IMG/VR virus record: IMGVR_UViG_3300031994_000022
Direction: 5' to 3' (one strand)
Length of the DNA: 64,000 nt
From: a virus
Taxonomy: Duplodnaviria; Caudoviricetes
Both the position numbers and the translations under genes were made by a program. This document shows positions 1,135 to 53,236 of this stretch, piece after piece. Position 1 is the first letter of the stretch. Each line of letters opens with the position of its first letter. The notes below the pieces were generated by a model, which saw only the letters and a list, made by a program, of their open reading frames with translations, searched no databases and was not told where the DNA came from.

Positions 1135-2154
1135 TTATGAAACTGTAACAGTACCTGCCGTTCCGGTAAATGTAGGTTGTGATACAGAACCTGCAGCAGT
1201 TGTTGTACCAGCAAGCTGTGTTTTTGTACCCGTAAATGTAGGCTGCGAAACACTACCGCTTGGTGTACCACTAACACTTACGTCGCCTTCAGTACCGGTA
1301 AAGGAAGCTGTGAATGTGCTAGGTACTGCAATATTTCCAGTAACAAGTCTTGCACCAGTACCAGTAAAAGCAGGAGCTGACGCTTGATAAGCTGCATCTC
1401 CGGTCTTTACGGTAACCGCAGTTCCCGCAGATGGAAGAGTACCTGCGCTAAATGAACCTGCTGTAATTGTGAGTGTTTCATTTGCAACTGTATATGTTGG
1501 CATTGTTGCAGATGGAAGAGTACCTGCCGAACCAAATGGTGTAATTGATGTTGTACTTCCTGCGGTTTTTACACTTATCGTAGGTGCAGCTACACTTCCA
1601 GCAGGTGTATATGTGGCAGTACCTGAAGAAGCAGCACTAACAGTAGTCGACTGATTTGCAGTTGTATTTGTTGATACACTTACAGAACCCTCTGGTGTAA
1701 ATTTTCCAGTTGAAGTTGTAGCCGAACCTGTAAATGTAGGCTTTGATACAGTACCCTTTGGCTGATAGTTACCACTTGTATTGTCTGTAGCGGTAATTGT
1801 TACAGTACTAGATGAACCTGTAAAAGTAGGCTTTGAAACTGTACCAGCGGGTGTAAAGCTACCACTTGCACTATTTTTTGTAGCAAGTGAACCAAGCCCA
1901 CTCATATCACCAAATTCGTGCCACTTTGTTCCATCAAAAACAAATTCTTTTTTATTATAAAATACTGCATCGTTAGCAACAGCAGTATAATCTGCACCAC
2001 TTATCTTAATAGGATTAGTTGTTGCTTCATCTGTAAGGGTAGTAGTAGTTGTTCCTTTAACTTTTATAGCACCGCCAATTTGTGCTCTTGCTACGGCATC
2101 TTTAATGTCATACGAATTTCCAGAAGGTAATGTAATTTTACTTATATCTGCCAT
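1135..2154 (-). CDS. Tail fibre-like protein with P.G.VS.PTFTG repeats
   Basis: Repeated G(T/S)VS(K/Q)PTFTG units. N-terminus (ISKITLPSGNSYDIKD) resembles that of the downstream fibre gene. Confidence 0.7.
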   Translation of the reverse strand: MADISKITLPSGNSYDIKDAVARAQIGGAIKVKGTTTTTLTDEATTNPIKISGADYTAVANDAVFYNKKEFVFDGTKWHEFGDMSGLGSLATKNSASGSFTPAGTVSKPTFTGSSSTVTITATDNTSGNYQPKGTVSKPTFTGSATTSTGKFTPEGSVSVSTNTTANQSTTVSAASSGTATYTPAGSVAAPTISVKTAGSTTSITPFGSAGTLPSATMPTYTVANETLTITAGSFSAGTLPSAGTAVTVKTGDAAYQASAPAFTGTGARLVTGNIAVPSTFTASFTGTEGDVSVSGTPSGSVSQPTFTGTKTQLAGTTTAAGSVSQPTFTGTAGTVTVS

Positions 2155-2171
2155 AATTTATCTCTCCTTTT

Positions 2172-2558
2172 TTAATTTGTCGTGAATATTAAATTTTCAT
2201 TATCTAATGTATCTAAATAACACCTTACCTTATTATTCCATGCTTCACGTTCCGCACTTGTAATATGATGAACTGTGTCTTCAATATGTTCTTTATACAA
2301 TGAATCGGTAAATGGCATATCAATGAGATATGATGATCCGTCTCCGATTTTAATTCCCGGAATATTATTATCATCTTCATCTGTCATATAATCTGAATAT
2401 ACATATATACAACCCCTTACAGAAACTAAATCTGGATGCAAATTCCAATTAGCTATTGTGTCGTAAAATATCGGAGTTGTATGTTGAGCAATCAGCTCTT
2501 TTATTCGTGTGTCGTATACACGCAATCCAGGAAGATCGAGGTATTTTTTCTGAGCCAT
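2172..2558 (-). CDS. Small fibre-associated protein
   Basis: IKIGDG...LPF motif typical of tail-fibre N-terminal modules; HITSAEREAWN motif; N-terminal KYLDLPGL..YD..IK motif. Confidence 0.6.
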   Translation of the reverse strand: MAQKKYLDLPGLRVYDTRIKELIAQHTTPIFYDTIANWNLHPDLVSVRGCIYVYSDYMTDEDDNNIPGIKIGDGSSYLIDMPFTDSLYKEHIEDTVHHITSAEREAWNNKVRCYLDTLDNENLIFTTN

Positions 2559-2634
2559 ATTATCCTCCTTTCAATGGATGTTATTTCCTCTCTAAATTGA
2601 TTAATCTATGCGCGATTTAGAGAACAAACAAAAT

Positions 2635-2661
2635 AAGAGAGTGGTGCGAGACCACTCTCTT
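2635..2661 (-). terminator. Intrinsic terminator
   Basis: 11-bp perfect stem AAGAGAGTGGT/ACCACTCTCTT followed by a U-rich tract on the minus strand. Confidence 0.65.
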
Positions 2662-2680
2662 GGGTATATAGTGTTATAGT

Positions 2681-4024
2681 TTAGGCGAACAGAGCTTCGA
2701 TATCAGCAGTAGCGATACCCTCTGTTGCAGCATCAGTATAGGCATTAGCGTTAGACTCTGCTGTAGCTGCAGCACCACTTGCATCATAAGTTCCACTTGC
2801 GATGCTACCGCTGATTGCTGTGATAACACCGTCAACCTCTGTTACAGAAAGAGCAAGTCCGTCTGTACCAGCAGTCTGTGCAACTGACGCATCGAGATCA
2901 GCTATAGCACTATCTGTATAGCCCTGTGCGTTTGTAAGAGCATTTGCAGCAGCACCATAATTATCATATGTCTCTGCAGCAATACTTCCACTTACAGCAG
3001 TTACCTGACCATCTGTAGTTGTTACAGAAAGTGCGAGACCATCTGTAGAAGCTGTCTGTGACTCTGTGTGAGCAGCGATAGCAACCTTGTCTGCTGTTAC
3101 TGCATCATCAGCAATCTTAGCAGTTGTTACTGCACCAGCATCAATCTTTGCAGTTGTTACAGAACTATTTGCAAGTTCTGCTGTTCCAATTGAACCAGCA
3201 ACGATAGTAGCAGAAATCTCATTGTTACCGTCTATAACAAGCTGAACCTGAGTTGCATCTTGCTTTGCTGTATAGATGTCAACAAGTGACTGAGCGGCGA
3301 TGTACAGAGGATCTGTTACGTTTTGAAGCTCAAGTTTGATGTACTTACCAGCATCAGCTGCTGTAGGTGTTCCACTACCAACGATAAGAGTAGTAACATC
3401 TACGTTACCATCCCAAAGCTTGTTGTTTGAGAATGTGATGTTTACTACAGAACCATCTTCAACAACCTGATCCTTTGGTACGTTGATATCTATAAGCTTC
3501 TCAGATGCAACTGGGTCAGATGCACTACCTATACCCTGATAGATTGAATATACACGAGCGTAATCAGATGTAGCACCATTGTCTACAATGTATACTGTCT
3601 TTATGTTAACGTTACTATCAACATAATGCTCTGTAGCGACCTCCTCGTAACTTAAACCAGAATCACTAATCTGTCCGTCTCCGTTATATATCATAATATC
3701 TCCGTATGAAACGTCATCATGATAATATCCAGTTATAAGTTCGTCAATGCCAATATCTGTCTCAGATACCGATCCATCCGAGTTAGATTTAACAACCTTA
3801 TCACCACTAGCAGAAGCTATCTTATCCATGAATCCAGAAACATCTGGAATGTCTACAGTATAAGAAGCCGTTCCAGAAGCATCAGCTGTTTTAAAGAAAC
3901 TAACTGTATTACCTACTACTGTAATAGACTTGATTGATTTTGCATCCTCTGTACCAATGTACTGCTTAATAAGTGTGTCGTAACTTGTCAGATTAGCAAG
4001 TGTCATAAATTGTTTTGCTGCCAT
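2681..4024 (-). CDS. Fibre-like structural protein
   Basis: VTTAKIA/D repeats, duplicated QTA.TDGLALSVT..DG.(V/I)TA(V/I)SGSIA units; paralogous in part to 4135-5136. Confidence 0.7.
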   Translation of the reverse strand: MAAKQFMTLANLTSYDTLIKQYIGTEDAKSIKSITVVGNTVSFFKTADASGTASYTVDIPDVSGFMDKIASASGDKVVKSNSDGSVSETDIGIDELITGYYHDDVSYGDIMIYNGDGQISDSGLSYEEVATEHYVDSNVNIKTVYIVDNGATSDYARVYSIYQGIGSASDPVASEKLIDINVPKDQVVEDGSVVNITFSNNKLWDGNVDVTTLIVGSGTPTAADAGKYIKLELQNVTDPLYIAAQSLVDIYTAKQDATQVQLVIDGNNEISATIVAGSIGTAELANSSVTTAKIDAGAVTTAKIADDAVTADKVAIAAHTESQTASTDGLALSVTTTDGQVTAVSGSIAAETYDNYGAAANALTNAQGYTDSAIADLDASVAQTAGTDGLALSVTEVDGVITAISGSIASGTYDASGAAATAESNANAYTDAATEGIATADIEALFA

Positions 4025-4134: not shown

Positions 4135-5136
4135 CTACTCAAAAAGTGCCTGTATATCTTCATCAGCAACACTTTCAATATCCTCGTCTTGAAGTGCAGT
4201 ATCTGCAAGATCAAGCGAATCATTTACATCAGAAGCAAGCTTTGCTCTTGTGATTGAGCCATCAATGAGTGTGCCAGTAATCTGATTGTTGCTATCGATA
4301 GATATCTGGATATAATCTGTTGTTCCACCAGTGTATACATCAACAAGGCTATTAGCAGGAATATAGATATGTTCACTTGAACTGTTAGCCAAAATTATAT
4401 CTATATATTTGTCACCCACCTTAGCACCAGGGTAAGGTTCATCAGCCACAGTAACTGTACCTACAGAACCACTTTCAACAAACATATCCTTAGCTATTGC
4501 AATTGAGGTTATTTTCTCACTAGGATCTGGATTCTGAGCAGAACCGTTTGATCCTTGATAGAAATCATACTTCTTACTAAACTCATCTTGTGAACCACCA
4601 GATGTTTCTACAACATATACTGTTTTAGAACCAGCATCACCTTGCACATCTCGCTTTGTTGCGATTTCATCAAGTGCTGTGTAAGCCATAGAATCAGCAC
4701 CGTTAGTATAGTAGATACCACCCTTGGTAACGTTAATTCTTGTACCTACATACTTGTTATCTGCATTCTTCTTCAAAGCGTAAATCTGTGCAGCAAGACC
4801 ATTCTCGCCACCATCATTTACGCCGACAAAACTCCATGTTCCGTCATTATGCTCAAACTTTGCACCACCACCATCTGTCTCGTTGAAGATAAGTGCCTTA
4901 CCATTAGTACCTTCAACAAGTCTCTGTACGAAATTACTGAGGTCAGGCTGTGGAAGAGTGATAGCATACTTTGGAGCAGTAGAACCAACTGGCTCTTCTA
5001 CATCATAAAACTTCAAAATGTTGCCATCGATTGCTACAGTTTTAATACTTTTCGCATCCTCTGCGGCAACATAATTTTTAAGAAGCTCATCATAAGTGGT
5101 GAGATTCTCAAGTGAGATAAACTGTTTAATTGCCAT
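4135..5136 (-). CDS. Fibre-like structural protein (paralogue of 2681-4024)
   Basis: Shared N-terminus (KQF..L.NL..YD.L.K.Y...EDAKSIK), shared KD..VE.GSV and YI.A.SLVD.YT blocks, and shared C-terminus (DI.ALF). Confidence 0.7.
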   Translation of the reverse strand: MAIKQFISLENLTTYDELLKNYVAAEDAKSIKTVAIDGNILKFYDVEEPVGSTAPKYAITLPQPDLSNFVQRLVEGTNGKALIFNETDGGGAKFEHNDGTWSFVGVNDGGENGLAAQIYALKKNADNKYVGTRINVTKGGIYYTNGADSMAYTALDEIATKRDVQGDAGSKTVYVVETSGGSQDEFSKKYDFYQGSNGSAQNPDPSEKITSIAIAKDMFVESGSVGTVTVADEPYPGAKVGDKYIDIILANSSSEHIYIPANSLVDVYTGGTTDYIQISIDSNNQITGTLIDGSITRAKLASDVNDSLDLADTALQDEDIESVADEDIQALFE

Positions 5137-5819: not shown

Positions 5820-6560
5820 TTATAATTCTATAAAGTTACTTGATGGCTCCGGATCTGGTTTGAGATTATCTACATCTATGATTCCATCGTTAGCATCATC
5901 AACTTCATCAAACATTGCGGGCTGTAATATCTCAACACCCTTACCAATCTGTTCACCGTCATGTACCAGATGAAGATTTTCCTTCTCGCCAATCTCAAGG
6001 TCGTTCGGCATCTTCTGCATCTCTCTATTAAGCTGATTCATCTGTGCCTTAAATGCTTCAATATCCTCAAAGTTGACATAGTCATTAAAACCATTAGGTC
6101 TCTGAACCATAAGAGTAGTAGAGTTACTCTCAAGCTTATCAATAACCATTGTTGTAGGATCATCTATTGGCGTATCACTTCCTTGTTCCTCAGTTACGAC
6201 CATAGTAGTACCTTCAACAACGTGTTCTGACTTTACACTTGGCTCAACGCCACCCTCGAACTTTATAAGTGTTAGACGCAGTGTGAGAGTACCCGACACC
6301 TGAGTAAGCTTAGTTGTTACTGGCAGCTCATATCTAAGATAATCCTTATACATGTCCTCATCTAACGTCAGTACTTCACTGTGGAAGTTACCGTTTGGAT
6401 CAACATACTTCAGCGTTACAGTATAGTCTTTTAACTCCGTACCATTATACATAGGTGGTATAAGGAACTGAATCTTATCTATCATAGACTCTTGCTGAAA
6501 TATAACTGTACGGACAGTAGTATTAAGGTTCTTATATTTATCCATTACTATTGTATACAT
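5820..6560 (-). CDS. Baseplate upper (BppU N-domain-like) protein
   Basis: Q.ES..DKIQF.IP..Y....L..Y.V.LKY..P.G pattern characteristic of BppU-like N-terminal domains. Confidence 0.55.
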   Translation of the reverse strand: MYTIVMDKYKNLNTTVRTVIFQQESMIDKIQFLIPPMYNGTELKDYTVTLKYVDPNGNFHSEVLTLDEDMYKDYLRYELPVTTKLTQVSGTLTLRLTLIKFEGGVEPSVKSEHVVEGTTMVVTEEQGSDTPIDDPTTMVIDKLESNSTTLMVQRPNGFNDYVNFEDIEAFKAQMNQLNREMQKMPNDLEIGEKENLHLVHDGEQIGKGVEILQPAMFDEVDDANDGIIDVDNLKPDPEPSSNFIEL

Positions 6561-45872: not shown

Positions 45873-47663
45873 TTACTTTGAAAATATTCCACCATATCTA
45901 GAAGATGACTTAGCAGCCTTCTTAGATGGATTACCAAATAGTTTCATACCAACCTGTTTCTTCTCAGGTTCTTCAGATGAAAACTCAATTTTATTGTGCT
46001 TTGAATACTCAAGCAACATTTTGTCAAGCTTATCAGTTAGCTCATCCGTAGAGAGATCGAAGTAATTCTCTCGCTTTGATAACTCGACAAATTCCTTGGT
46101 TTCTCGAATATTCTTCCAATCCTCTGACTGAAGAATTTCCTTCTTTGCTGGTTCGGACTCGTACTTTGCAAGTTTTTCCTCAATAGCAGAGTAGCTAGTT
46201 TTCATCTGTTCAAGAGCATTCTTCTCATCAGCAGATAAGAACGAAACAAATGTTTCAATTCTATCACCCTTAAGTGAATATACATCTTTCTTTACAGAAT
46301 AAGACTGACGATAGTGCTTATTATTCCACCAATCGTGGAATTCAACTATCTTAGTTTCTTCAATAACATCACAATCATACCATGCACCATCAGACTCACC
46401 GTAAGTATCATTTACAAGAATTGTAAGAGCATTCAGCTTTTCCTTGAGTGATACTGAATAATCTTTCTTTGCACCCTTAACAGACACAGTATAATTTACG
46501 GAATAGTAATTAACATCTTCTGGATCTTCGGTATTATCATCAGGTTCATCAGGTTGTTCTTCTTCCTCAGATTGTACTTCAGGAGTATCGTCTTTATCAT
46601 CAGGATTCTCATCATCGTCCTGATTTTCCTTGTCATCATCATCCTTGTCGCCATCCTCATCGTCATCGTCTTGATCCTCATCGTCAACAATTACCGAATC
46701 ATCATCTTCAGACTTCTTACGCTTTTTCGGACTATCTTCAAAGTTTTCTGTAGAAGGAGTGAAATGCTCTGCAAATACTGCTTCGAGTTCCTCATCTGAA
46801 AGTCCTTCGTACTCAAAATCAATTTCATCAATTGACTTTCCATATTGTTCTAAAAGCTTTTCAAACATTGGTTTTGGATTACCTCCTTCCTCTAGAATTT
46901 CGTTGTTTATATTAAGGTTATCTATTTTCTCGTTAAGAGCAGATAACATCTCAATAACTTTTTCATTCTGTGAGAATATACTATTATTCTCGACACTAAA
47001 GTCGGCAATTGAAATATTGCTTCCAACCATACCAGGCTTTACTTCTTCGCCTGTGTAACGATTCTCTTCAAGTATTGTGACTCCACTAAATCTAAACTTG
47101 TCTATACACAATACTTTCTCTTTAGAGTCATAAGATAATTCATCTACAAATAACTCTACACTCACAGACAATCTCTTTTCTCTTTCTATAATTTCTGCTG
47201 CTTTACTGTATGTTTTCCAAATAATACCAGTACCGTCAACATAAGTCTTATCCATATCTACATCATATACTAATTTAAGATCGGCTGATTCCGGTATACA
47301 GCCAACTGGGATTTCCTCATATACGGTTTCACCATCATCATTAACATACAACTCATGACTAGCAAAAACATCTTTCTCACCATTGTTATATATATATCCT
47401 AAGATTGGCATATTATACGCAGTAGGCAAAGCATTCTCCATAGCCTTTTCAGATATAAAACTTTGGTTGGCATTTTTCTCTGTGTGACAAAGTCTGATAG
47501 GACAATACATATTCAATTCATCATCTTCAGACTGATCATATGTAAACGGTTCATCTATATGAACTACAATGGTAGTGTCATTATCAGCAGAACTGAATTT
47601 TACATTCTTATTCTGAGTTACATAATAATTATATAAATCAGAGAGATATAAGAGTTTTTTCAC
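45873..47663 (-). CDS. Prohead protease/scaffold protein
   Basis: N-domain with H...N.N.S.I, PILG, SVE, F.GVT.L....PGM; long acidic linker; coiled-coil C-terminus; GTG start. Confidence 0.7.
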   Translation of the reverse strand: MKKLLYLSDLYNYYVTQNKNVKFSSADNDTTIVVHIDEPFTYDQSEDDELNMYCPIRLCHTEKNANQSFISEKAMENALPTAYNMPILGYIYNNGEKDVFASHELYVNDDGETVYEEIPVGCIPESADLKLVYDVDMDKTYVDGTGIIWKTYSKAAEIIEREKRLSVSVELFVDELSYDSKEKVLCIDKFRFSGVTILEENRYTGEEVKPGMVGSNISIADFSVENNSIFSQNEKVIEMLSALNEKIDNLNINNEILEEGGNPKPMFEKLLEQYGKSIDEIDFEYEGLSDEELEAVFAEHFTPSTENFEDSPKKRKKSEDDDSVIVDDEDQDDDDEDGDKDDDDKENQDDDENPDDKDDTPEVQSEEEEQPDEPDDNTEDPEDVNYYSVNYTVSVKGAKKDYSVSLKEKLNALTILVNDTYGESDGAWYDCDVIEETKIVEFHDWWNNKHYRQSYSVKKDVYSLKGDRIETFVSFLSADEKNALEQMKTSYSAIEEKLAKYESEPAKKEILQSEDWKNIRETKEFVELSKRENYFDLSTDELTDKLDKMLLEYSKHNKIEFSSEEPEKKQVGMKLFGNPSKKAAKSSSRYGGIFSK

Positions 47664-47700
47664 TTCTCCATATTCCTCCTTTCTTTAAAAATAACAAAAC

Positions 47701-47730
47701 GCAGAGCAGACCTTTTACAATCTACTCTGC
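47701..47730 (-). terminator. Terminator-like hairpin closing the RNA cluster
   Basis: GCAGAGUAGAU/GUCUGCUCUGC followed by GUUUUGUUAUUUU. Confidence 0.6.
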
Positions 47731-49398
47731 AACCGTAATCAATACGGTTCTCTCCTTATATGTGCCTCCATTGGACACTTCATTGAGAGGTGTGGAGGCT
47801 TCTGTCAAAATGACCCGACGTGGTACGCATCAAAGTGAGAGGCGTGTCGGGTTCTGTCCAATATAAAAGGAGCTGTGTGTACCAGCTCCAATTCCTCGCA
47901 ATATTGGCAGTAATTACAGTTTACTGCCGATAATTCCTTAGCGAGTCTCGGCGTTTTTCTTTTCAGATATCTGCATCCTAGTCAGGGTAAGACTGCCGCA
48001 GCTTACGGTAGAACCTCCACGTAAGAACCTGACAAACCTTACGCTTCAACGGTTAAACTTAACTAGTGAGTAATATTCTAACCGTTACTCGCGGTACGAA
48101 AATGTCACGAAAACTATATACTATTCGTGACACAATCTCAGCTCCTCCTACCAATAGGATAGGTGAGTAAGTAGATAATGCGTAGTCCCGGTGTTAACAC
48201 ATAACACTTACCACGACGGAGGCAGGATACTACGACTTACAATATCTGTCAGAGCGTACTCCACATGGAAGTCTGACAATCCCATGCTTCACAGCAGATC
48301 CGCCAATACCCAAGGGCGAAGAGTAGTTTAAGTGCTTAACTCAGGCACAAACATTTTCAAACCGACCTTTTATATTGCGGTAATCGGTCTCCGCATGGGT
48401 TCTGTTTATTTTGCAACTTTCATTTGATGGCTTATGGTAAGTTGCCACCTTTATACATCTCCACATTCACCGCATACCATCACGGATTCCGCTTCATAGA
48501 CATCTACACTTAGGCGGTGAACACCATGTATTGGCTCTGTTCTCGCTCCACTCTTGTGTCTTTACCACAGATTTAAAGTCTACACCTACGCTACTGACTA
48601 CCAATATTTTGAATCGCTAGAAGTTTTAAGTCGTCCTAAAGACCATATGGTTATCCGATATTGCAGTGTTTTACAGATTCGTCATCCAACCATATGAACA
48701 CCTCTGGAAACGTGCCTCCTCGGAATAGGGCTACACCAGTACCATTACGCACCTACGTGTTTAGGTCTTTTCGTTGACCAAATATTAAAGCGACTCGGCG
48801 CGGATCTTCACCGCCATCGTGCTAGTTATAGGGAATTCGCCTCGGTTACCAACCTTAACGCCGCTTATAATAATCCACTTTTTATTTGGAAGCGATGGGA
48901 CACTTCGTTTGAATCACTAGGAGTTTTAGGTCATCCTAAAGACCGCTCGTAATGGGTTTAATGTCTCCATACCGACAAAAAGAACGGCATTGATGCTGGC
49001 ATCGCTACCGCTGAAAAACCTTTGGCTTTTCGTTCATAATCCACCGTTGTAGCATAGGTCGTGGGACACCTACCGCACCGTTCTTGGAATTTCTTTGTTG
49101 TGGGAGTTACCCACTTCATTATTTTTCCTCACACTTCGCCGCCACACTAAATGACTATAAAGGTTCTCACTTGAATTTTAAGGTGGACGAGATATTCCAC
49201 CAGTAGAGTTATTGCGCATTACGGTAACTTCGCTTACCTCGGTACTGTCGGTTAAGGGAGCCGACTCCTATTGGATAGCTGACAACATATCACCTATTGC
49301 CGAGCTTTCATGGTATATTTAACGCCCCCCACTAGGGAAAGAGGTGCTATCCGTTGTCCTCTTATATTTTACTGCCCTATCAAAACCATCATAGGACT

Positions 49399-49502
49399 CT
49401 TCACCCGGTCAATTTTTATTTTACCGACGAGTCAGAACCGTCACTCGTCATCTTCGCTCGGTCAGTTTTTATATTACCGACGAGTCAGAACCGTCACTCG
49501 TC
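49399..49502. repeat. Two-copy tandem repeat, 53-nt period
   Basis: CTTC...CGGTCA.TTTTTAT.TTACCGACGAGTCAGAACCGTCACTCGTC at 49399-49449 and 49452-49502. Confidence 0.95.
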
Positions 49503-49571
49503 TCATCTATTATGGAATTATTTTTTGTTTTATTTGGTTGATTTGGATCATTTGCGTAATACCATTTAAAA

Positions 49572-49595
49572 AAGACGACAAATTAACGTCGTCTT
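49572..49595 (-). terminator. Terminator after the portal gene
   Basis: AAGACGAC/GTCGTCTT stem plus T-run on the minus strand. Confidence 0.7.
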
Positions 49596-49621
49596 AAAAA
49601 TATTGTTTTATTATCTAAAAG

Positions 49622-51178
49622 TTATCCTTCGCTCCTTGCCCTAGAACGTTCACCTGAATCAGATAAATCTCCTTCATCTACTTGTGGTCTTCCTTGTCCA
49701 ATTTCAGAAGTATATCCATCTTCAGTACCACTTTGGGTATAAGATGAATTTAGAGGACGAAGTTTATCACTAAGACCTAATAATTCTTCTTCTACATAAT
49801 TCATACAGATAGTGTCTTTTTCACTAAATCCATTAAGAGTATTGATAGCTAACTTAGTTGGTAATCCATACTGACCAGACGAAAGTAGCTGTTCTCTATA
49901 GTCTGACTTTGTATATGTTGAAATTGGCATAAAACGTACTTTGCAGTCATCGGCACCCTCATAACTAAGCATCCTCATTACCCAAGATTGTATTTGTGGT
50001 AGAAGAGAAGAGATGGCAAATTCTGTGTTGGCAATGGTAGCCATCTTAAATGCATAAGTATTATTGATGGTAGCACCATTAAGTATTTCAGCACCACCAG
50101 CCGTATTTAGTACTTGCTCTGTAGCTTTAGCAACTTTAGTAGTATCAGTTGCTTTATCATCACCAAAGCTTATTTCATGCAATTGTCCAGGAACAATGGC
50201 AGTAGCTATATAATCCGGAATACTATCATTAAGCTTATCAAAATATGGTAATGAAAGATCCGGGTCGATTTTCCAATCGTCTATTCGCTTCGATCCGGTT
50301 ATGGTTTCTAATTCGTACCACAGAAGCTTGTATACGCTCGCAGCATCCCCCGCTGCTTGAATGTCCTCAAGGTCTGCAAGATTTATAATACTATTAAATA
50401 TACCGCTCCAGGGACTGACTATTACATCCAAATCTTCAATTCTAAACTTCATACAAACTTGATACTTAGAATCTATCAGTTGCCACTTTTCACCAGTGCT
50501 TTGATAATTTTTCCAAACATCTTCAAATACTTCTGGTATATATTCAATAAGTTCTTGTCTATTTCTTAGCCATGAGGCATCAAAAAAATAAGACAGATCA
50601 CCTGTCATAAATTTTCCAGCTATCTTACAATAATCAGCTGGTAATTGCATATGAAATACCCCAGTATCATCATGAATATAGATACCATAATAAATATCTT
50701 GAACAAAACAAGTAAATATTATTGGATAAAATTCCTGCTGTAATCTCATTATTGAAACTGCATCAAGAGTATTTTGATAAGATTTCATTATCTTATCAGC
50801 ATTATTTTCTTTGACTAAATCATATTTAGGAATAATGCTTCGACAATCTAAACAAAACATTTCACTAAAGAAATGAACAATCCTATAAAATACATGAGAC
50901 CTATACAGAAGGTACCAGGCTAACGCTCGCAAATTCTTTTCTTGAGATCCGATATTTTGTAAATATTGTCTTAATCTTTCTTTATCAAAAGTAGTAATTG
51001 TTTTATTATAAGTCTTACCAATATCTCTTAATTGTTTAAGCATCTTATCTTTATTTTCAGTAGCAAAATTTGTAACCATATCTAAACGGTCTTTATTTTT
51101 GCTATACCAATCTTTTATTTCAGCCACTGTCGGCTGTTTAGGTGCATTCGACACCTGTGTAGTCTTTGTTCGTGCCAA
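49622..51178 (-). CDS. Portal protein
   Basis: Follows terminase; LP.DYCKI, PL.SSYTQS and GRP motifs seen in SPbeta-like portals. Confidence 0.8.
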   Translation of the reverse strand: MARTKTTQVSNAPKQPTVAEIKDWYSKNKDRLDMVTNFATENKDKMLKQLRDIGKTYNKTITTFDKERLRQYLQNIGSQEKNLRALAWYLLYRSHVFYRIVHFFSEMFCLDCRSIIPKYDLVKENNADKIMKSYQNTLDAVSIMRLQQEFYPIIFTCFVQDIYYGIYIHDDTGVFHMQLPADYCKIAGKFMTGDLSYFFDASWLRNRQELIEYIPEVFEDVWKNYQSTGEKWQLIDSKYQVCMKFRIEDLDVIVSPWSGIFNSIINLADLEDIQAAGDAASVYKLLWYELETITGSKRIDDWKIDPDLSLPYFDKLNDSIPDYIATAIVPGQLHEISFGDDKATDTTKVAKATEQVLNTAGGAEILNGATINNTYAFKMATIANTEFAISSLLPQIQSWVMRMLSYEGADDCKVRFMPISTYTKSDYREQLLSSGQYGLPTKLAINTLNGFSEKDTICMNYVEEELLGLSDKLRPLNSSYTQSGTEDGYTSEIGQGRPQVDEGDLSDSGERSRARSEG

Positions 51179-51190
51179 GTCGCACCTCCT

Positions 51191-53236
51191 TTATCTGCCC
51201 ACTATTTTTGCTGGGCGAATTGTTAATTTATCTAAAAGATAATTTGAAGATACTTTTGGCTTCTGAAGAAGCAACTTACGTCTTTCCTCAGCCAATGCGT
51301 GTCCAAGCATACAACAAGTATAGGCACGGTCGTCATGCATTTTATTAGCTTTTTCTGGGGTTAACTCAAAAGAGTCCTTACCGGATTCCCTTTTCTTTCT
51401 CACCATATTAACCAATTCTTCTTTCAAAGCATCGATATTTGCTAAAGCAATTTTATCTTTCCAATCCAACTTTATAGTTTTAGTATTAACCGATTGTACC
51501 TTACCTAATTCTTCTTGTAATTTATCTTCAAATTCTTTTTCATTTAGTTTTTTCTTTTTTAATTCTTCAATTATTCTTCCACGTTCTTTGTCTAATTTCT
51601 TCTGGTCAATATCAAATACAGTAAGATATTCTTTATTATCATATGTACTTGTGAAACCAATCTTATCTTGATTAAGCATTTCTATTAGTGCTTCATACAT
51701 CATCGATTTAAATTTAGCCGGTTCCATAAGATGAACCTTGTCCACCGCATTTGGGAATCTACCAACATAATCAGCAGAGTATTCTTTATCTATTAATCCT
51801 CTATGAATAATACCATCAGAAGTTTCCCAATCTGGCATCAAGTAATCGGCTATGTTCACACCGCCTCCTCCCGTACCAGCATCAATCCAAATACCGACAA
51901 TATTTTCATATGCATCAGCACCAGCGTTGTAATCAAGAATCATTTGTTTTAAATATTCAATCTGATCAGGCGTTCTCATAGGACTCTTGATTCGTTTACC
52001 GACATCCAAAAGATTAACACCATTAACAATCTTTGCTCTTTTATCAATGCTTCCATCTACTTGTATAAAATCATAAAACTCAGCCACAAGTATAAATGAG
52101 TTATCCACCTTACGAGCAGGGTCATAAAATAACCCATATTTCTTATCACCAGTTTCATTACAATGAATTGGCTTTCGAGTTTCCTCATTACGAGTAATAA
52201 CACCACGTTTTACAATGGCATCCGAACCAGCTTCTGTTGTAAATTGACAGTAATACTCGCGCCTCGCCTTTTCTGGATTTGTTCTCATTTCAGATTCGAC
52301 AGTAGAGCGAGAGAGTAGTGGAGCAATAACTTCACCATGTAATGTCGGTTTGAATGCGAGTTCACAATCAATGTGAAGAACACAATAATCTGGGTCTCCC
52401 ATAATCTGACGTTTAGCAAAATCTCTATATAAAGAATAAAACTTTGTATCAGTAGAAGATGCACTACTAATATAAAACTTTTGGTTTGGTATATCTGTGG
52501 CAAACGTTCTTTGTCTAATAGGGTCAATAGAACGACCACTTGCATCTTTACCAGTCTTTAAGCTTTTATTTACAATAGCAAACGCCGAATATACATTCAT
52601 CATTTCTTCCGATAAAAAACCGCTTTCATCGAAGATTACGTTTCCTCTCATTCCTCTCTTTTTATCTATATTACTGTTGAGCGTCTGAGTCATCGACCCA
52701 TTATAGACTTCGTAATTGAATCCATTAGAAGAATGACTAAAACCATCGCCAGCTGCATTTTTGATTTTTATTTCATCTTTAAATATTTTTCCTGTAGAAC
52801 CTGCAAAGGTATCTATGTTATCATTTGCAATACGTTCGAGCGTTGTGAAAGTTTGTTCTGCCTGAGAACCAGATCCTGAAGCAATATATGTCCAATAATT
52901 ACAGAAACACATGTCCTTCATCATGGTTTCTAAATCTATAACTGTTGATTTTCCCCAACCTCGAGTCGCAACGATTAATACATTTGGACAATTCCATGAA
53001 CGCTGTACTGCTAAAGCTTGAGAATCCAAAAGTTCAATATTAAACCAAAAATCTATACCAGCTACGGGATTACATTGAAAATATTTCTGCATCATCGCAA
53101 TAGCCTGTAACGCTTCAATTTTTCTCGTAGACATAGGATAATCAATTGGCTTTACAAATATTCCATAATCTTTATAGAAATCTTTATCATATTGCAAATC
53201 ATAATCAAAACTATTCGGTGTCCATATCTGACTCAT
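51191..53236 (-). CDS. terL: Terminase large subunit
   Basis: Walker A ATRGWGKS, Walker B VIFDE, ISSA, nuclease YDPAR..DNS, IDAGTGGGG, HDDRAY. Confidence 0.9.
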   Translation of the reverse strand: MSQIWTPNSFDYDLQYDKDFYKDYGIFVKPIDYPMSTRKIEALQAIAMMQKYFQCNPVAGIDFWFNIELLDSQALAVQRSWNCPNVLIVATRGWGKSTVIDLETMMKDMCFCNYWTYIASGSGSQAEQTFTTLERIANDNIDTFAGSTGKIFKDEIKIKNAAGDGFSHSSNGFNYEVYNGSMTQTLNSNIDKKRGMRGNVIFDESGFLSEEMMNVYSAFAIVNKSLKTGKDASGRSIDPIRQRTFATDIPNQKFYISSASSTDTKFYSLYRDFAKRQIMGDPDYCVLHIDCELAFKPTLHGEVIAPLLSRSTVESEMRTNPEKARREYYCQFTTEAGSDAIVKRGVITRNEETRKPIHCNETGDKKYGLFYDPARKVDNSFILVAEFYDFIQVDGSIDKRAKIVNGVNLLDVGKRIKSPMRTPDQIEYLKQMILDYNAGADAYENIVGIWIDAGTGGGGVNIADYLMPDWETSDGIIHRGLIDKEYSADYVGRFPNAVDKVHLMEPAKFKSMMYEALIEMLNQDKIGFTSTYDNKEYLTVFDIDQKKLDKERGRIIEELKKKKLNEKEFEDKLQEELGKVQSVNTKTIKLDWKDKIALANIDALKEELVNMVRKKRESGKDSFELTPEKANKMHDDRAYTCCMLGHALAEERRKLLLQKPKVSSNYLLDKLTIRPAKIVGR

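Follow-up and report, generated by a model that had tools for sequence, protein, structure and literature searches.

The 64,000-nucleotide stretch from the IMG/VR virus record IMGVR_UViG_3300031994_000022 (Duplodnaviria; Caudoviricetes), hereafter the window, carries a gene-free region of 1.96 kb, bounded by the portal gene and the head gene that follows. We consider this region to be, with fair likelihood, an array of RNA antitoxin decoys belonging to several families, extending the pseudo-ToxI principle to several toxin families. A preliminary description had reported two back-to-back copies of a ribozyme-like RNA core in this region, each built of four sequence blocks. The two copies are five pseudoknot units (X1, Z, Y1, X2 and Y2) of two type III-style families of antitoxin RNA, together with the optional modules V, U and W. 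In the mechanism that we propose, the phage transcript would supply knots that bind the toxin RNases of the host in place of the host antitoxin RNAs; the latter would be short-lived and would be replaced by the phage knots during infection. Toxins held by the phage knots would not trigger abortive infection, and the units may be cut out by the toxins at their conserved single-stranded tails. The region and its pseudoknot units are as follows.

47664-49621, minus strand: the whole gene-free array, 1.96 kb between the portal gene and the next head gene.
49035..49073, minus strand: X1 (blocks 1 and 2 of copy 1), with a 6-bp stem 1, a 3-nt loop, the pairing CCAC/GUGG and an AUUAU tail.
48869..48906, minus strand: X2 (blocks 1 and 2 of copy 2), built like X1; its stem 1 (5 bp) is a different one, and its loop 3 is A-rich and 10 nt long.
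48952..48977, minus strand: Z, of the repeat-1 type, with the stem 1 GUC/GAC, a 4-bp stem 2 and an A-rich loop 3.
48908..48944, minus strand: Y1 (block 4 of copy 1), of the repeat-2 type, starting 33 nt after Z.
48608..48644, minus strand: Y2 (block 4 of copy 2), a solitary unit of the repeat-2 type, with G-C to G.U changes relative to Y1.

Direct reading of the minus strand bore out the four blocks, in the same order in both copies and with the coordinates and spacings first described, blocks 1 and 2 being separated by 17 nt in both copies and block 3 being preceded by 1 nt in one copy versus 94 nt in the other. The 37-nt last block occurs exactly twice in the window (48908-48944 and 48608-48644), and two matches were obtained in none of 100 shuffles. 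The 8-nt first block also occurs twice, but at least two matches were seen in 28 of 100 shuffles, so that its recurrence is not significant alone. The hairpin proposed to display UCCCA in its loop holds, and its stems differ between the copies by compensating changes.

Unit X is an H-type pseudoknot: the hairpin of block 1 carries CCNC in its loop, and this segment pairs, over an A-rich linker, with GNGG in block 2. The stem-2 pairing was found in the variants CCAC/GUGG, CCUC/GAGG and CCGC/GCGG and in a UCGC/GCGA form; for example, the CCAC/GUGG of X1 becomes CCUC/GAGG in the related phage loci L003, L007-L009 and L031. Stem 1 was present in at least five different sequences, and that of X2 covaries among L002, L004, L025 and L033. 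In 15 phage instances, 100% of the positions were paired, with compensatory changes in five of the eight pairs, and these values were reached in none of 500 shuffles; when the partner was slid as a control, pairing fell to 27-50%. Because the 15 instances had been chosen by requiring pairing (15 of 17 motif matches passed), the count was repeated on members found with a covariance model of stem 1 only, bacterial repeats included, which gave 99.3% pairing, again unmatched in 500 shuffles. The long-range helix that was thought to close each copy, between the 3′ tail and block 2, is not supported: it shows no covariation, its halves often occur alone and block 2 pairs locally, the GUGG of block 2 being used in the knot with the block-1 loop and thus not free for the closing helix.

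Relatives of X were found beside toxin genes in bacteria. A covariance model built from the phage X units (R1) was run on 151 Lachnospiraceae genomes and detected two adjacent tandem 42-nt units in genome G048, each scoring 33.6 bits, with −35/−10-like hexamers upstream and a terminator hairpin and a 188-aa ORF (open reading frame) downstream. This ORF matches the Pfam family ToxN_toxin (PF13958; E 4.5e-40) and was called AbiQ by PADLOC (4e-27). A second ToxN locus with the same repeat type, whose toxin is 59% identical, was also found by the model in G188. Phage X1 and the G048 repeat are identical at 29 of 39 positions without gaps, including 18 of the first 20. We regard the homology of X to ToxI-type bacterial repeats as well supported. 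A DUF3800 gene lies convergent to the G048 ToxIN locus (L167, 2-601, plus strand), which suggests a small defence island.

Several other candidate relatives of X were set aside. An IUPAC pattern for X gave matches at the rate of the reversed control, its single match (L166) being coding sequence. Weak BLAST matches to X1 in L201 and L203 fell in ABC-F ATPase coding sequence; the match in L204 was coding, that in L207 covered a ribosome-binding site and start codon, and that in L202 was short and near-identical, and all five were taken as chance. A single X-like pseudoknot of 28 bits lies between two coding regions in G016:C165 (L168, ~1500-1540, minus strand) and may also be a chance match.

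Units Z and Y were linked to a second type of bacterial locus. In a BLAST search of the whole gap against 401 Lachnospiraceae genomes, Z and Y together matched G039:C21 with 77% over 56 nt. The G039 locus consists of −35/−10-like hexamers, two repeats that are not identical, a terminator hairpin and an ORF of 210 aa carrying a PBECR4 domain (PF18813; E 7.8e-19). Homologues of this ORF were present in 18 of the 401 genomes, and nine of the 11 close homologues had upstream repeats (9 loci with 19 units, one to three repeats each); of the two exceptions, one matched only from residue 51 and the other was a fragment interrupted by a stop. In the PBECR4 loci compared (L200/L209, which is G039:C21, L210-L218 and L220-L226), the ORF regularly comes after promoter-like hexamers, pseudoknot repeats and a terminator hairpin, and Z-like tandem repeats were found both before PBECR4 genes and in G251 (L205). 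Distant PBECR4 homologues have longer repeats of ~60 nt instead.

The repeats of the PBECR4 loci share a gap-free geometry, namely a 3-bp stem 1, a 3-nt loop, a 4-bp stem 2, 1 nt and a 7-nt A-rich loop ending in AAC, and Z, Y1 and Y2 all fit it without gaps. Repeat 2 differs from repeat 1 in a fixed way, by a fourth G-C pair on stem 1, and the phage Z and Y units carry the repeat-1 and repeat-2 signatures respectively. Z-Y1 is therefore a complete two-repeat cassette, with Y2 standing alone. Z and Y1 start 33 nt apart in the window; the distance is 32-33 nt in L002, L003, L031 and L033, the same as the bacterial period of 32-33 nt. Over the 30 units of the Z/Y family, 97.5% of the positions were paired and all four stem-2 pairs showed compensatory changes, and neither the paired fraction nor the covariation score was reached in 500 shuffles. 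The pseudoknot first drawn for the last block thus stands with the bacterial relatives added, and it is confirmed only via the family, as the eight phage copies alone contain no compensatory change. The homology of Z/Y to bacterial antitoxin-type repeats is, like that of X, well supported.

The PBECR4 proteins themselves are annotated only as domain-containing or hypothetical. For the PBECR4 protein, no sequence match was found in the PDB and no name in NCBIfam; its fold gave no Foldseek match at E 0.001 or better and no VIA-align match at Z ≥ 5, including to the ToxN and CptN PDB entries. The PBECR4 gene with its pseudoknot repeats is a candidate type III-like toxin-antitoxin family, possibly distinct from TenpIN, of which we found no description.

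Comparison with related phages showed that the region is a mosaic. About a dozen distinct related loci were gathered by portal-based and pattern-based searches. The gap was found only in phages with at least 71% portal identity, relatives at 56-59% having about 170 nt there; its length ranges from about 600 to 1960 nt, with sharp junctions, and modules are gained, lost and reshuffled from phage to phage. Block 4 is limited to the window (two copies), L002, L003, L004, L025, L031 and L033; blocks 1 and 2 (X) occur without block 4 (Y) in L005 and L007-L010; block 3 is missing from copy 1 in L002, L004 and L025; and in L031 the 3′ tail is lost directly after the knot. X1 was present in all nine distinct relatives with at least 80% portal identity and a complete gap. 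These patterns of loss indicate that the four blocks are not one inherited unit, and the invariant core with an expandable periphery has to be given up, while the suggestion that the units form part of an array was correct. A loop-only Y pattern run on IMG/VR returned, besides L002 and L003, chance matches only; L001 was a chance match in a coding region.

Among the relatives, the most widely shared stretch of the gap is the following.

49201-49368, minus strand: module A.

Over 81 nt (49273-49353), module A has 94% identity with a site found in a single Lachnospiraceae genome (L172, G358:C4). Module A and X1 occur in most relatives, hairpins are exchanged at fixed positions, and the gap directly follows the portal gene, all of which would fit a single large structured RNA acting as a scaffold or in packaging in the manner of phi29 pRNA, ROOL or GOLLD. 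We nevertheless hold this to be very unlikely, as L033 lacks module A but has X, Z and Y, the minimal arrays L009 and L010 are without most modules, bacteria have single modules on their own, each equipped with promoter-like hexamers and a terminator hairpin, and no match to any large RNA was found in Rfam.

The remaining parts of the two copies are optional or structured modules.

48978..49034, minus strand: V (block 3 of copy 1), an optional small hairpin RNA ending in a U-run.
48781..48868, minus strand: U, an unassigned structured stretch, placed after X2 and before W and conserved in both L002 and L004.
48645..48780, minus strand: W (block 3 of copy 2), optional, ~135 nt, with block 3 inside a GGUC...GACC hairpin.

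V is missing in L002, L004 and L025, and RNA contigs of runs X21 and X22 skip 48977-49034. Free-standing small RNA genes with 90-92% similarity to V are present in G367 (L192) and G027 (L206), where they have promoter-like hexamers and a terminator hairpin of their own. U gave no match in Rfam and no BLAST match among the 401 Lachnospiraceae genomes, and BLAST against the same genomes found no relative of W outside the phage clade; in L002 and L004, only the first ~25 nt of W are present. Block 3 opens V in copy 1 and lies in the hairpin loop at the start of W in copy 2, and is a coincidence between two unrelated modules.

The 1.96-kb array appears to be transcribed. In runs X3 and X4, two rumen metatranscriptomes of one sheep sample, a contig of run X3 is identical to 47676-49289 and a contig of run X4 is nearly identical to 47845-49261, with two differences. 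In run X3, the depth was 20.8 over the array versus 1.6-5 over the portal and terminase genes, and variant arrays were present in RNA runs of two other studies. One RNA contig stops at 47676, just past the downstream terminator hairpin. The run X4 contig carries Illumina adapter at both ends (47845 and 49261), as if many cDNA fragments ended there.

The contigs from the RNA libraries run uninterrupted across both copies, which argues against a self-cleaving or self-ligating ribozyme core in each copy that processes the array, as had been suggested from an invariant core with a variable periphery. Compact pseudoknots with invariant unpaired nucleotides are what such a ribozyme might look like; however, the four blocks are not inherited together, the closing helix competes with the covarying local pseudoknot, and cmscan gave no match to a ribozyme family (hammerhead, twister, twister-sister, pistol, hatchet, HDV or glmS) at gathering thresholds over the whole window or at E up to 10 over 47500-50500. 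Moreover, the relatives of both knots are antitoxin repeats, and in the characterised type III systems the antitoxin RNA is cut by the toxin protein and does not cut itself (PMC4627078). We therefore give the ribozyme almost no credence.

A further possibility is that the modules are non-functional debris, left by recombination with host toxin-antitoxin loci in an intergenic site that tolerates it. The extreme mosaicism, with gap lengths from 600 to 1960 nt among close relatives, and the existence of phages at 56-59% portal identity without such a gap are in keeping with this. It is less easily reconciled with the compensatory changes within the phage copies (CCAC/GUGG versus CCUC/GAGG and several stem-1 variants), with the conservation of X1 in every close relative with a complete gap, or with the RNA-library contigs, which cover the region at a depth like that of head genes, and we judge debris to be distinctly improbable.

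The decoy array would not be confined to the X and Z/Y families, as further units of other families lie in the same gap.

48354..48403, minus strand: a CptI-like unit, 200 nt downstream of the Z/Y units in the same array, with no cptN nearby.
49362..49502, minus strand: three tandem hairpin units of 52-53 nt, 91-94% identical to repeats in G332 and G306.
47813-47851 and 47764-47809, minus strand: two abiF-like hairpins, scoring 32.1 bits (gathering score 37).
47946-48054 and 48409-48502, minus strand: two drum-like matches, 37.9 and 26.4 bits against a gathering score of 43.

The CptI-like unit has the same loop, A-rich loop and stem 2 as the Eubacterium rectale CptI repeat, the sequence of which was taken from a primer (PMC4627078), and its stem 1 is swapped compensatorily. 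At least 120 canonical cptIN loci contain the motif that it shares with CptI, and almost all of them are from Lachnospiraceae or related Clostridia; L031 has at 5835-5875 a stretch resembling repeat 2 of bacterial cptIN loci. The 52-nt units have bacterial counterparts at L171 (~1500-1612) and L173 (~1500-1604), and in G306 and G086 matching tandem repeats are followed by a terminator hairpin and then an ORF. The G306 ORF encodes 301 aa, with no Pfam family in the N-terminal 180 aa and the pattern C_GCAxxG_C_C at the C-terminus; the 52-nt repeats and the ORF are probably another repeat-plus-toxin family. The abiF-like unit has BLAST relatives in many Lachnospiraceae genomes, and drum RNA is reported to accompany certain protein genes in its neighbourhood, which may be related to DUF3800 genes (PMC5737381). 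Small arrays joining abiF-like and CptI-like units occur in two other metagenome-assembled genomes (MAGs), L110 and L089. The 300-nt array in L110 (including 4575-4619), from a Christensenellales-like MAG, has its own promoter-like hexamers and terminator hairpin. The L089 locus (1300-2700, minus strand) is from a Clostridia MAG; here a CptI-like unit lies, together with a module resembling window positions 48095-48150, within a tRNA-like run that follows promoter-like hexamers, the tRNAs having been identified by eye.

These units were not reported by Rfam at its own thresholds. Over the whole window, cmscan at gathering thresholds gave only a tRNA outside the gap, and at E up to 10 over 47500-50500 it gave only the sub-threshold drum and abiF matches, which lie outside 48608-49075; no Rfam family covers the blocks, and no Rfam antitoxin RNA family was reported over X or Y. 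A BLAST search of the gap against GenBank phages gave no match.

The window belongs to a tailed phage with nearly all genes on the minus strand. The genes around the gap and the hairpins at its ends are listed here.

51191-53236, minus strand: the large terminase subunit.
49622-51178, minus strand: the portal gene.
From 47663, minus strand: further head-module genes, the first after the gap being phrog_3313.
~49565-49595 and 47685-47728, minus strand: terminator-like hairpins with a U-run, one at each end of the gap.

On the minus strand, the upstream hairpin and U-run lie just past the portal stop codon, and the downstream hairpin and U-run just ahead of the ribosome-binding site of the next gene. 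No ORF was present in 47664-49621 under code 11, code 4 or TAG=Q, and alternative genetic codes were thus discarded as an explanation of the gap.

The position of the array between a terminator hairpin and highly expressed head genes could also point to knots that stall a 5′-3′ exoribonuclease such as RNase J, in the way of coremin- or xrRNA-like elements, and so give rise to a stable non-coding RNA or protect the head-gene messages. The Z/Y units have in common with the plant-virus coremin motif an A-rich UUAAAC-type stretch behind the 3-bp stem. Coremin of beny- and cucumoviruses is an Xrn1-resistant RNA motif, tandem in some viruses, in which a hairpin 1 of 3 bp with a YGAD tetraloop is followed by a conserved 10-nt spacer and a second hairpin (PMC6546385). 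Z/Y is like it in the 3-bp GUC/GAC stem and the conserved A-rich spacer that follows, and unlike it in that the loop has 8 nt, the middle of which pairs with the 3′ segment after the A-rich stretch, with covariation, instead of a YGAD tetraloop and a separate second hairpin as required in coremin. In addition, the bacterial relatives of X and Z/Y are separated by a terminator hairpin from the ToxN and PBECR4 nuclease genes that follow them, as in the type III layout, and nuclease stalling leaves the CptI-like unit unexplained. We regard it as quite unlikely.

Besides the head genes, the ORFs of the window include, by Pfam, an integrase, an S24 repressor-like protein, a holin, an amidase and choline-binding repeats; the integrase and the repressor-like protein led us to read the phage as probably temperate, and its gene content as a whole points to a Gram-positive host. 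CheckV rates related contigs of 19-44 kb as 13-32% complete, from which the full genome is probably near 140 kb. A temperate phage might use the units as antitoxins of its own toxins encoded elsewhere, for prophage maintenance or phage exclusion; there are reports of phage-encoded type III toxins (PMC12283969), and only part of the present genome is in hand. However, ToxN, PBECR4 and CptN gave no tblastn match in the 64-kb window and no such Pfam family was present among its ORFs, so that no toxin gene follows X, Z/Y or the CptI-like unit, and ToxN and PBECR4 were not found in five of the related contigs, the ToxN control matching nowhere. Furthermore, the toxin gene directly follows the repeats in every bacterial locus seen, whereas the phage crowds units of at least four families into one ORF-free stretch. 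Antitoxins for the phage's own toxins are thus an unlikely explanation.

Several points weigh against the decoy array. The decoy function of the units is inferred. The window is under half of a genome of roughly 140 kb and, with the genome incomplete, toxin genes could lie elsewhere in the phage. Phage units are single or paired and interleaved, in contrast with the homogeneous tandem arrays of bacterial loci: the starts of X1 and X2 are separated by 167 nt, an interval that takes in V, Z and Y1, and the two units are not alike in stem 1 or loop 3. X matches the bacterial repeat in the knot core and not in loop 3 or the tail, and in ToxIN the antitoxin loop 3 and tail contact the toxin. Y is unlike all bacterial repeat-2 units in loop 1 and in stem-2 sequence; the exact Y pattern was found in none of 185,579 species representatives and a Y covariance model found nothing in the 151 Lachnospiraceae genomes, neither of which proves absence. 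The PBECR4 locus is a putative toxin-antitoxin system by locus architecture only, and assembled RNA contigs cannot prove strand, ends or processing.

With these points weighed, we still favour the decoy array, and we put forward with more reserve a wider proposal, in which the gap would be a hypervariable anti-toxin RNA island, one transcript with decoys for at least five defence nucleases controlled by RNA antitoxins, one of them, the PBECR4 family, undescribed. Its proposed targets are ToxN/AbiQ, CptN, the PBECR4 nuclease, AbiF and the toxin of the 52-nt repeats, and possibly a DUF3800-linked drum system, and its modules would be swapped between phages much as anti-CRISPR genes are. If the array does act as a set of decoys, wild rumen phages would use RNA mimicry at large scale, with a dedicated locus that evolves fast and counters several toxin families together, and such arrays could flag which bacterial repeat-plus-nuclease loci are real defence systems; the search with the present array has led to PBECR4 nucleases preceded by pseudoknot repeats. 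The units and the candidate toxins are short and open to direct laboratory testing.

Among known systems, X is close to ToxI and AntiQ (PMC4627078, PMC8860590). It shares with them the H-type pseudoknot fold, its ~39 nt falling within the roughly 34-45 nt of that class, as well as an A-rich loop 3 and a tail left single-stranded, and it is collinear with the repeats that lie ahead of the ToxN genes in G048 and G188; unlike them, it has no adjacent toxin gene and no tandem repetition, and its loop 3 and tail differ. Like CptI, Z and Y are H-type pseudoknots in which an A-rich loop packs on stem 1 (PMC4627078), and Z-Y resembles TenpI in consisting of two non-identical repeats, as many tenpI loci do (PMC12283969, PMC13682666). 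They differ from both in that the associated protein is a PBECR4-domain protein with no fold match to the ToxN or CptN PDB entries. RNA anti-CRISPRs are solitary mimics of CRISPR repeats in phages; as an analogy only, they are alike in that the RNA partner of a host defence protein is copied and expressed by a phage with the rest of the system absent, and unlike in defence class and RNA fold. To our knowledge, escape from type III toxin-antitoxin defence by RNA mimicry is represented by one laboratory case, Pectobacterium phage phiTE, whose pseudo-ToxI, in work attributed to Blower et al. in 2012 (PLoS Genet.), reportedly allows it to escape ToxIN abortive infection by molecular mimicry. As in phiTE, the phage RNA described here resembles type III antitoxin repeats and comes with no toxin gene. 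However, phiTE mimics one family, ToxI, whereas the present array, whose decoy role is inferred, holds units of at least four repeat families (ToxI-type X, PBECR4-type Z/Y, CptI-like and 52-nt) together with abiF-like and drum-like RNAs, interleaved, single or paired, and shuffled among relatives.

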